From Octopus vulgaris (lineage: Eukaryota), in assembly GCA_951406725.2 (NCBI GenBank), contig OX597816.1:66526001-66590000 (forward strand): a stretch of DNA of 64,000 nt, read 5' to 3'. This document shows, in pieces, positions 35,801 to 39,982 of this stretch (position 1 is the stretch's first letter; every line of letters begins with the position of its first letter). A program made the translations under genes and the position numbers. Below the pieces are notes generated by a model. It worked only from the letters and a program-made list of their open reading frames with translations, did not search any database and was not told the DNA's origin.

Positions 35801-36887
35801 GAAGGAGAGATAATTTAGTGGCTCAGAGAGGGGTCTTGATTTATGTAAAATGTGGGTGGAGAGAACTGTATTAAGGGTGAAGGAAGGATATCAAGTGAAA
35901 TGTTGTGGGTGGCAAGCAAATATTTAAATGTTCTTGGTGCAGGGAACCATCTGGCAGCATCTAAAGTTATAAAATAAATAATGCTGACCACTGGGAATAG
36001 TAAAAGTTTGGTAACCTAGTGCTAGAACAAAGCCGATGTTGAATTAAAGAAGGAGCCACTAAGTGGTTGATTGATTTATAGATGTAGCAGTCAAATCCTT
36101 CTCAAATCACACTCTAGCATCTTCAATAAAACAGCCTGCTAATCATGCTTGGAATAGCTTTGATCATAGGTTTACTTGCGCCAGGTTAACCTGATGATGT
36201 TTGAAAGGGGAACAGATGAAGGTTGCTACTTATAGAAACAAATAGGTGCTTTTCTGTTTGTCTACTAAAAACAAACAACATTCATCATCATCATTATTTT
36301 ATCATCTACTATTCTATGTTAGCATGGATCAAATAGAATTTGTTGAGATGGATTTTTTGCAGCCACATGCCCTTCCTGTCACCAACCCTCATCTATTTCC
36401 AAGTAATTTAATATTTCCTCATAAGCAGACATGTTTTTTTAGGGAAGATTGGAAACTGCTTGCATGATGTTGACACTCACAACTATCATGTTATGTCAAG
36501 GCAAAGTGACAGTAACACATACATAATATAACTCACAAAGCTTTGGTTACCCCAGTGCTATAGTTGAAGGTACATGCCTATGGTGCCACACAACAGGAGC
36601 GAACCCAGAACCATATGGTTGGGAAGTAAACTTCTGACCACATAGCCACTCCTACAGCAATATTAGATGTTTAAAAAGTGAGGCCCTGTACGGCAATCAA
36701 GATTTTCTGCAGCAATTTGACAGAAAAGAGCTGGGTATGGTTAATCTTATGTACAAGTGACTTAAGAATGTCATTGGACAACAAGCATATGTTTATAAAG
36801 TTAATCCAAACATGAAAACACAACAACACGAGGACGTGCAACAAATATAGTATTATTGGACGCTCAGGAAGGAAGGGAAGAAGGAGG

Positions 36888-36922
36888 GTTTTACGTTTCG
36901 AGCGGAGCTCTTCGTCAGAAAC
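36888..36922 (-). ncRNA. Minimal type I hammerhead ribozyme motif (family 2) within a short repeat at about 36808-36991
   Basis: Minus strand reads GTTT CTGACGA A GAGC tcc GCTC GAAA CG T A AAAC. Intact core, ACGT palindrome, GUA triplet. Confidence 0.82.
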
Positions 36923-38042
36923 ATAGGAAAAGGAAAGATCAGGGAAGGGAAGACGGAGGAAAAAAAATCGCCAACGGTACACACACGGTCAGAAGAAGAT
37001 ACAGATGTAAACGCATGCAGAGAGATTGGGTGAAAAGTGTCTTGAGTTTATGATTTACAGTACTCATAAAATAAATCTTTAGTTAAATATATTCAATGAG
37101 AATTTTATATACTGAATTTACATTGAGTGCTCTATTGTATCAAAGTATTAATACTTTTAAGTATTTATGTATTTAATACGAGTAATTATATATATTTTAT
37201 AATATATTATTATTTATACAGATTAATATTAGGAAATCAATACCAGAAAATTCTTCAGAGAAATATATACGCGTGAAAAATAATTGTATCAAAAATATAA
37301 ATAAGTATAAGTATAAATATATAATGTATTTGACAGTTTAAAAGTTTTGAATTAAGTTTTTAAAGCATCTTATGATCGTTTCGCAGAAGTGCTGTCCCTA
37401 TAATGGAATCCTATATTGGAAAGTATTTATAGACAACTCTTCTGCTCTTCAGAGATATAAAATTTGAATTTTGTATAATTTATCGAATGGTAATTTAAAA
37501 AAAAAAAATGAAGTAATACTATAAAATGGTGTTTGTTTGAAATATAAATTAAAAATTAAGAATTACTGCTTTTGATTTTGGTAAGTACACTTTAGTGTGA
37601 GAGTCCTTAAATCCATATATACATTCTTGGTTAGTCTTCTGTAATAATCCATAATAGTTATGTGTAACATCCATTATATTGTCTTGTATTCCAAATATAG
37701 TTCATAGACTTAGATAATATAGAAATATTATACTCATAAAATAAGAAGAAATTGTATCACAGCTAGATCTCAAAGAGTCAAGAGACAGTTGGCAATGGCA
37801 GTAACCAATCTTTGAGAGGTGCCAAAAACTCTTGGACTCTTGAGTCACTATGTAACTTTTGCTGGTAGTTATAGGATGTTTCACAAGCAATCAGCTCTGA
37901 ATGCGCTGCTTCTTATAGCAGAAACAGCAGTAAACTAACGAAAGTGATTACACAACTCCTGTTCATTTAATTCAGTTCTATATTTAAAAGATAAGGAATT
38001 ATTTACATTTGACGGATGTTTGTCCTCATCTTGTTTGTTGTT

Positions 38043-38088
38043 AACACAACGTTTCGACTGATATACCCTTCAGCCTTCATCAGGTGTC
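38043..38088 (-). ncRNA. Minimal type I hammerhead ribozyme motif (family 1, left arm)
   Basis: Minus strand reads GACAC CTGATGA A GGCTG aagggtatat CAGTC GAAA CG T T GTGTT; one G-U wobble in stem II. Confidence 0.82.
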
Positions 38089-38377
38089 TTAGGGAAATTT
38101 CGAACCTGGGTTCTCATTCCTAAGGTATTTTTCAATGTTGTTGTCGCTATTATTATTTTTCAGGTCACTGCCTGGAACCAAACTCAGAATCTTAAGGTTT
38201 GTAGCCCACGCTCTTAACCACTACACCCACGGGCATATGGCATAGTGGTTAAGAGTGCAGGCTACTAACCCCAAGATTTCAAGTTTGATTCCAGGCAGTG
38301 AACTGAATAATAATAATAGCGACAACAACATTGAAAAATACCTTAGGAATGAGAACCCAGGTTCGAAATTTCCCTAA

Positions 38378-38423
38378 GACACCTGATGAAGGCTGGAGAG
38401 TATATCAGCCGAAACGTTGTGTT
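38378..38423 (+). ncRNA. Minimal type I hammerhead ribozyme motif (family 1, right arm)
   Basis: GACAC CTGATGA A GGCTG gagagtatat CAGCC GAAA CG T T GTGTT. Intact core, 5-bp stem II, palindromic ACGT stem III, GUU cleavage triplet, stem I GACAC/GTGTT. Confidence 0.85.
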
Positions 38424-39649
38424 AACAACAAATAAGATGAGGATAAATATCCATCAAATGTAAATAATGTCCTGTTCATTTGTCATATATTAATTAATAT
38501 TATGCTCTGTACCTGCCTAACATTTTACACCGAAGCATAGATATATTAAGTTTTAACAACTGGTTATTAGTTTCGCTATGCTTAAATGAAATCATAAAAT
38601 ATGTATATATGTAAATTACTGCAAATAAAAATACTTTTCATGTAGAATGTACACATGGGTACATACTTAAACACACATGATACATATCTACACATTTACA
38701 AATGATCACAGTAATAGAAGTTAATACATAAGTACAAAAGTTGTATGTGCAGGCAGAAACAACTATATATACGTTTGTGTGCGTAAGTGTGTTTACCTGG
38801 GCACTTGTGGAATGTTGCCAATTTCAACATGATTTATAGACTGAAGAGCTCTTATATAGACAAATGTCTATACTCTTGAATTTAAAACTGTTTTCTGCCG
38901 CAGCTCTTTAATTATGTTGTATAGTGTGTCATGATGGATAGCCATTTGTAACATGGAAAGTCTGTAAGCTTTTTGGCAAGCAGAGAAGTGGATGAAGAAC
39001 TGGCAGACAAGAGCGGAAAGAAACAAGTGATGACACTAGATATATCTAGATTGAAATTATATTTCTTTGAAATGCAAGTTGTAGCTGGTTGAGTCAGTGA
39101 AGTGAAATTGGTTGAAATTTTGCTGCTTACCATATTTAGCAGTGAAGTGTCTATGACAACTATCAATAATTCAGTTCACCACTACCATCACCATCAATAT
39201 TTTAATGTCCCCTTTTCCATGTTGAAATGGGTTTGATGGAATTTGCTGGGGCTGATTTTCTACAGTAGGCTGCCCTTGTTGTTGCCAACCTTCACCTGTT
39301 TCCAAGTGAGGTAATATTTCCCCCCAGTCAGACTGGAAACGATGGACACCAGTTGTATGATGGTAACACTCACAACTATCACACAATGCTAAGACAAAGA
39401 GACACACACACACAATGGGCTTCTTTCAGTTTCCATCTACCAGATCCACTCACAAGTCTTTGGTTGGCCTGAGGCTATAGCAGAAGATACTTGCCCAAGG
39501 TGCCACACAGTGGGACCAAACTAGGAGCTATGTTTTTGGGAAGCAAACTTCTCAACTATACAGACACATCTGTACCCTTAAAGAATAAATGTAACAAAAC
39601 AGAATTAAAAAAAAAAGGGATTTTAATATTTTGATGTTAGATGTTGTGA

Positions 39650-39982
39650 AGGCGCATAGCTCAGTGGTTAGAGCATCGAGCTTATGATCGTAAGGTCATG
39701 AGTTCGAATCCCGAACTGGGCTGCGTGTTGTGTTCTTGAGCAAGACACTTTATTTCACGTTGCTCCAGTTAACTCAGCTGTAGAAATGAGTTGCGATGTC
39801 ACAGGTGCCAAGCTGTATTGGCCCCTTTGCCTTTCCCTTGGATAACACTGGTGGTGTGGAGAGGGAAGGCCAGTATTCATGGGCGACTGCTGGTCTTCCA
39901 TAAACAACCTTGCCCTGACTTGTACCTGGGAGGGTAACTTTCTAGGTGCAATCCTACGGTCAGTCATGACCGAAGGGGCTCT
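39650..39982 (+). mobile_element. tRNA-headed SINE family D (representative copy)
   Basis: A box TAGCTCAGTGG, B box GAGTTCGAATCC, then TGTGTTCTTGAGCAAGACAC. Related copies at about 12915-13140, 26168-26420 and 49880-50185. Confidence 0.85.

Follow-up and report, generated by a model that had tools for sequence, protein, structure and literature searches.

An inverted pair of pseudo-LTR copies of a Penelope-like element with a tRNA-derived head and a minimal hammerhead in the Octopus vulgaris genome

The closest described systems are Penelope-like elements (PLEs). For Poseidon of Anolis carolinensis (PAc), the available sections of Frangieh et al. (2024, PMC11167929) describe nicking of both strands and two internal priming sites from about +111 of the ORF; the first 172 bases of the ORF are needed, the hammerhead overlaps the ORF start and its cleavage is dispensable. 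Pen2a and Pen3a of Adineta vaga (Arkhipova et al. 2013, PMC3846280, in part) and the general scheme of PLE insertion (Craig et al. 2021, PMC8557442, in part) offer further points of comparison, and opposite-strand pairs of hammerheads 100-700 bp apart have already been noted in excerpts of Cervera and de la Pena (2014, PMC4209133). The PLE promoters described in the excerpts of the literature at hand are of the Pol II type. SINEs, for their part, are normally regarded as separate parasites of LINEs.

We found that a 525-bp unit (37957..38481) in the window, i.e., the whole 64,000-nucleotide stretch of Octopus vulgaris DNA analysed (contig OX597816.1, positions 66,526,001 to 66,590,000), consists of two inverted pseudo-LTR copies of an abundant autonomous PLE with reverse transcriptase (RT) and GIY-YIG domains. 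The two arms, 37998-38223 and 38243-38468, are 226 nt long, 92% complementary and arranged head to head, and, read outward, each begins with a tRNA-like head, which is followed by the (AAT/AAC)n linker, then by the minimal hammerhead and finally by the 3' part. The sequence TCCTGTTCATTT is present at 37957-37968 and again at 38470-38481, a direct repeat that frames both arms as a target-site duplication (TSD); the first T of the right TCCTGTTCATTT doubles as the last base of the element, so that the TSD is 11-12 bp. The features of the unit are as follows.

37957..37968, + strand: left target-site duplication, TCCTGTTCATTT
37969..37972, - strand: 4 filler bases separating the tail from the TSD, likely templated, since 3 of them agree with the full element where its ORF goes on
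37973..37997, - strand: the Penelope 'tail' of the long arm, 25 nt, ending at repeat position 275, +154 from the ORF ATG
37973..38227, - strand: inverted copy of the pseudo-LTR (left arm), covering repeat positions about 12-275 but lacking one 9-nt unit
38043..38088, - strand: left-arm hammerhead (minimal type I), with cleavage predicted after U38048
38174..38227, - strand: left head, with its B box (38174-38183) and A box (38218-38227) both decayed
38222..38237, no strand: junction of the arms at the element's TGCCC-AC-GGGCA hairpin
38227..38470, + strand: copy of the pseudo-LTR (right arm) that covers repeat positions 1-243 and stops at the short priming site
38230..38305, + strand: tRNA-derived head; the A box is at 38238-38248, the B box at 38283-38292
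38306..38329, + strand: (AAT/AAC)n linker, its length varying greatly from copy to copy
38349..38470, + strand: PLE ORF codons 1-40, ATG at 38349, in frame through the hammerhead
38378..38423, + strand: right-arm hammerhead (minimal type I), with cleavage predicted after U38418
38470..38481, + strand: right target-site duplication

This anatomy, with its tRNA-like heads, minimal hammerheads and 12-bp repeat, is that claimed in the preliminary description. The same account attributed the unit to one insertion event, in agreement with the single TSD around both arms and with the recurrence of the layout across the family. Its figure of 29 extra nucleotides for the left tail needs correction: the one-sided tail is real, but comprises 25 nt of element tail plus 4 filler bases. 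The A and B boxes are more decayed in the left arm than in the right. We also observed that the linker has grown into long microsatellites in many copies, including L312, L316, L317, L318 and L322, and that a tRNA-like stretch at 39652-39722 (+; Rfam tRNA, 19.7 bits, E 1.5) is probably the head of another SINE.

At six early loci, the sequence upstream of the head was a GIY-YIG-type frame, and the repeat follows 28 of the 30 best loci for the GIY-YIG protein, starting within the first 25 nt of the head in 26 of them; the stop codon of this ORF lies 30 bp before the head. The order repeat-ORF-repeat was seen at L156 and L145, and ORF end, head, hammerhead and ORF start follow one another in a single run at L227, L233 and L235. 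The PLE unit measures 275 + 2376 nt (2651 nt, 2.65 kb), with the ORF ATG at repeat position 122 (38349 in the window) and a frame that crosses the hammerhead into the RT. An RVT_1 match (E=2.7e-6) was obtained within a 569-aa open frame, and the GIY-YIG-type C-terminus was recognised by eye, the Pfam GIY-YIG model giving no match to it. Protein relatives numbered 2980, with full-length ones of 810-855 aa; relative P0003 (55% identity) aligns from the hammerhead codons on (44% over 177 aa), and the peptide coded by the hammerhead core is kept in it at this protein level of comparison. Metagenome contigs yielded no DNA surrounding the protein relatives. No intact full-length ORF was present among the 150 best protein matches, in which the longest frame was 569 aa, and a comparison with solved structures returned no match. 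The features of an EN+ PLE are present, namely RT and GIY-YIG in a single ORF, a partial-tandem pseudo-LTR, an inverted 5' copy with tail and TSD, and a minimal hammerhead. Penelope machinery had been invoked beforehand, and the RT/GIY-YIG ORF followed by the head-bearing repeat (28/30 loci) confirms it; a PLE pseudo-LTR sharing the tail half of the arm had been envisaged, and the one found shares the whole arm, including the head.

We tentatively place the element in the Penelope/Poseidon clade, from its motifs (a GIY-YIG at the C-terminus that lacks the cysteine knuckle of L037) and from likeness to PAc. The PLE family mainly returned by the Pfam GIY-YIG search was rejected as the partner, its end repeat being different and the arm unmatched in 30 loci. 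In addition, an abundant PLE, present at L091 (G000:C16:20835000-20841500) and many other sites, has intact 781-aa frames and direct end repeats, was probably active recently and carries a degenerate hammerhead-like motif in its end repeat; it is presumably of the Neptune type, judging from its motif. At L228, L231, L234, L240, L243 and L244, the first 230-460 bases of the ORF are followed by another end-repeat piece, suggesting template jumps.

Querying the genome with one arm gave 62 matches among the 40 scored of 3935 candidates, and an exact 36-letter hammerhead word occurred 1427 times (reversed control, 0). No copy was found in 11 blind 10-kb stretches, and the copy number was therefore taken from word counts, which give roughly 32,000 hammerhead-spanning arms when scaled from 5 exact words in 113 unselected arms. 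Arms diverge from the consensus by 3.8% outside CpG (265 arms). Contigs from organisms B, D, E and F contain the family as well. No empty site came to light, the flank contigs of D, F and B entering the tail by 26-30 letters, below the bridging threshold.

The insertions have a regular structure. At least 49 of 90 hammerhead-anchored arms have an inverted partner, and 36 of the 41 pairs with classed ends (8 further pairs without an end class stand outside this number) combine a long with a short arm (~275 + ~241-250), against 3 short/short and 2 long/long pairs (P=8e-7). In ORF coordinates, these ends lie at +120 to +129 and at +154. Exact TSDs of 10-15 nt flank 21 of 60 pairs versus 0 of 500 mismatched controls, and the TSDs of the inverted pairs are mostly 12-13 bp. 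In the 21 pairs with clear TSDs, a count that excludes the 39 of 60 without an exact TSD of at least 10 nt, 24 of the 32 bases lying between the tail and the TSD agree with the ORF as it continues (P=1e-6), including 14 of 16 from position 277. The templates therefore likely extended into the ORF, a stretch that solo copies could not provide; the match could partly reflect a preference of the endonuclease for AT-rich sites. Variants are shared by the two arms of a pair at 9.4%, compared with 2.8% in random pairs (71 pairs); for example, the variant at position 67 was in both arms 7 times and in one arm twice, and that at position 231 in both 6 times and in one 4 times. Such sharing fits one source per insertion, not strict copying of one arm from the other. 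Simple fold-back of one arm was rejected as a general rule, the short-ended arm often being the longer one (L074, L117, L141). Extra tandem 9-nt units were observed at the short-arm ends of L062, L068, L166 and others, suggesting initiation slippage or repeated copying.

The head's best match in the genome was tRNA-Asn, with 47 identities over 75 nt (z 8.8), followed by tRNA-Arg(CCT) (45 identities; 31 genes of 8 isotypes compared), a ranking that is not decisive for the isotype since the tRNA-Asn genes were found with a head-derived pattern. About 20 tRNA-Asn(GTT) matches were clustered at G000:C20:52848000-52928000. Both the A and the B box are intact in the consensus, and the tRNA-derived head of the preliminary description is upheld by them and by the tRNA-Asn likeness. 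Exact words of the head numbered 4931, compared with 919 for a word 65-70 nt upstream, so that about 80% of the copies that reach the head stop there. In the hammerhead-anchored set, 26 of the 32 arms reaching the head end between -15 and +25 and 6 extend past it; 31 other arms begin at the variable linker, some of them without a clear end. Among 30 head-anchored copies, one extended far into the ORF and two to -17 and -23, the rest starting near or within the head. Many head ends are extended as the mirror image of the head from the TGCCC-AC-GGGCA hairpin. This fold-back form gave 760 rows, or about 585 places after correction for 23 of the first 77 places having been counted twice, versus 637 read-through copies.

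The G of the hairpin lies 13 nt before the A box, which is a usual distance for a Pol III start. The sense consensus has no TTTT over 2651 nt, as against 9 runs in the 2343-nt ORF of another PLE; the gap is modestly significant (P 0.008, 0.017, 0.028 and 0.087 under four nulls), and GGGG is likewise absent. RNA reads on one copy numbered 10154, 7709 and 7059 in three runs (one study, organism B), with the strands equal. No pile-up of RNA starts or ends was seen in these three runs, and a coverage step at the head was also present in DNA contigs. A Pol III start, part of the earlier account, is probable in that the 5' ends and the TTTT gap fit it, although the RNA reads show no start. Pol III RNA is uncapped, and translation would thus need another route. 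We tentatively propose, as a possibility of somewhat doubtful standing, that a PLE captured a tRNA-derived promoter, purged Pol III terminators from its 2.65-kb unit and came to be transcribed by Pol III, each transcript giving rise to a SINE-like stub because the PLE RT primes within the 5' portion of its own message.

Both arms have CUGAUGA, an extra A, a 6-bp stem II, GAAA-CG-UU and a 5-bp stem I, and stems I and II form in the predicted folds of both. A hammerhead descriptor found three sites in the window, the two arms and an unrelated one at 36918, and none in 20 Markov simulations; neither Rfam nor ARAGORN recognised the hammerhead or the head. The identification as a PLE-type minimal hammerhead holds, the motif matching the published description of metazoan PLE hammerheads. 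In 75 unselected arms, the core varied at 28 of 697 positions (4.0%) and the remainder at 265 of 5969 (4.4%), and the greater conservation of the core over its flanks that had been set as a test was thus not found; a core no better conserved than the rest is as expected of dead copies. Production of the copies by self-cleavage, as formerly suggested, is not supported either: the cut site is repeat position 191, to which arm ends do not map, lying instead ~50 and ~85 nt past it, and no RNA read ends were found at the predicted cut site in the three RNA runs (one study, organism B). The hammerhead, if it cuts at all, would do so apart from the insertion step. The N-termini of P0003, P0119 and P0029, three of the five relatives with long N-termini, begin, as predicted proteins, with peptides that a hammerhead would encode (by eye, protein only). 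A second, unrelated minimal hammerhead with 4-bp stems lies at 36886-36926 (-), inside a different repeat family (about 36800-36990) that also matches 6 other fetched loci.

These data are probably best explained by a single insertion in which both pseudo-LTR copies were reverse-transcribed from a head-started RNA, likely the element's own Pol III transcript. By analogy with the Anolis Poseidon protein, the endonuclease would nick both strands about 12 bp apart, and each nick would prime a cDNA at one of two internal ORF sites. The cDNAs would extend back to the 5' end of the RNA, where the terminal hairpin would fold back or anneal and so join the arms head to head. A head-started transcript would yield a 275-nt SINE-like stub, of which the element would have produced tens of thousands, and a read-through transcript from a tandem copy an ORF-bearing insertion. 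Stubs would retain the promoter and lack the ORF past +154, so that most would be dead ends, where the need for 172 ORF bases is carried over from PAc by analogy only.

Alternatively, solo copies of head and hammerhead might constitute a true SINE, with Pol III transcribing them and PLE proteins copying them anew in trans. We consider this unlikely, although head-started copies exceed ORF-linked ones about fivefold, single head-started copies with their own TSD exist (L005, L029, L087) and PLE proteins can act in trans (PMC3846280, in part). The majority consensus is identical in head-started arms (123) and ORF-linked arms (59 and 23), with no SINE-specific diagnostic change; variants are common to both groups, and the somewhat different frequencies at which they occur (position 67: 23/49 versus 30/121) are a point in favour of a SINE. 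Rather than a distinct family sharing only the 3' end of its partner, the whole unit proved to be the partner's repeat, with the head belonging to the autonomous element, and the filler bases continue into an ORF that solo copies lack. The separate SINE family of the preliminary description is thus not supported, the head being in the pseudo-LTR of an autonomous PLE with the same consensus. The short copies, then, are likely cDNAs that ran off the end of a PLE transcript started at the head (by Pol III), and not a self-propagating SINE.

It is likewise improbable that the head is what remains of a captured tRNA or SINE and plays no part as a promoter, the pile-up of ends resulting from long Pol II or read-through RNAs on which the hairpin induced RT switching or fold-back. 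Palindromes at the inverted junction have been reported, in the excerpts consulted, in PLEs without tRNA heads, about half of the hairpin-retaining copies are folded back, and the absence of a discrete start in the RNA reads would fit as well; the hairpin by itself could cause template switching, which would count against the Pol III reading. However, a hairpin of 5 bp with a loop of 2 nt is a weak cause for 80% of copies stopping, the ends lie past the hairpin at the Pol III start distance from an A box, both boxes are intact in the consensus, and the unit is free of TTTT. A retrozyme, whose template would be a circular RNA made by hammerhead cleavage and ligation, would explain the complete minimal hammerhead with its palindromic stem III and the direct repeats of the 3' part in some derivatives, and retrozymes have been proposed, in a source available in part, to be PLE derivatives; it is nevertheless very improbable, the copies being inverted pairs or singles with no head-to-tail arrays, and both arm ends and read ends being off the cut site. 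Separate insertion of the two arms, a local inversion at a later time or faulty assembly would accommodate the difference between the arms at ~8% of positions. The chance of this is negligible, given that both arms lie inside a single TSD, that at least 49 of the 90 arms sampled show the same layout, that the arms of a pair share variants well above random pairs (9.4% versus 2.8%) and that fold junctions are present in the RNA runs. A single insertion from a head-started PLE transcript thus remains our preferred explanation.

If this explanation is true, a protein-coding retroelement would be read by Pol III and be a direct source of SINE-like repeats, there would be a route by which SINEs arise inside their own autonomous partner, and part of the annotation of a SINE-rich genome would correspond to PLE stubs. 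The family also offers natural insertion products by the thousand in which the 5' end of the RNA is fixed, making the origin of the inverted arm and the junction palindrome in PLE insertions testable. The inverted arms, the one-sided tail, the junction palindrome and the hammerhead are all published features of PLEs. In the literature searched, no PLE came up whose head was of tRNA or Pol III type (Repbase, Dfam and supplementary libraries, which may hold the family, were outside this search), and the available parts of a retrozyme preprint and of an octopus repeat annotation make no mention of one. The tRNA-derived head inside the pseudo-LTR, which we did not find in print, is the unusual part, the shape of the insertion being known.

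Compared with known systems, the octopus repeat, with its putative Pol III promoter ahead of a hammerhead in a short unit, resembles the SINE-like elements Sm-alpha and Sj-alpha of Schistosoma; the latter, in the accessible parts of PMC6765202, are tandem repeats freed by cleavage, whereas the former is the terminal repeat of an autonomous PLE, in inverted pairs. The octopus SINEs OR1, OR2 and OK also have a tRNA-derived head, possibly in the same host group, and OR1 and OR2 are cited as CORE-SINEs (PMC4758252, PMC4824008, both in part), the comparison with our repeat being by description only. Like the metazoan PLE type I hammerheads in excerpts of Cervera and de la Pena (PMC4209133), the octopus motif has an extra base between 9 and 10.1, G10.1-C11.1, a long helix II, a short helix I and a palindromic 15.2-16.2, but it has U rather than C at the cut position, and a tRNA head is not reported in those excerpts. 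Pen2a, Pen3a and the general insertion scheme (PMC3846280, PMC8557442, both in part) have in common with the octopus element inverted pseudo-LTRs, a 30-40-bp tail on one arm, a TSD (of 8-10 bp in those elements), a junction palindrome interpreted as self-priming and a pseudo-LTR holding the first codons; the pseudo-LTRs of Pen2a and Pen3a have TATA/Inr-like Pol II motifs, whereas the octopus repeat has an A/B-box head and TSDs mostly of 12-13 bp. A notable likeness is to PAc, with which, in the available sections of PMC11167929, the octopus PLE shares one ORF that encodes an RT and ends in a GIY-YIG domain, an arrangement in partial tandems, a hammerhead that overlaps the beginning of the ORF, two priming sites ~110-155 nt into the ORF that give a one-sided tail, AT-rich targets and the absence of RNA ends at the cut site. 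Unlike PAc, for whose pseudo-LTR no such head is described in those sections, the octopus PLE has a tRNA-derived head with a putative Pol III promoter, and most of its copies are putative promoter-started stubs.
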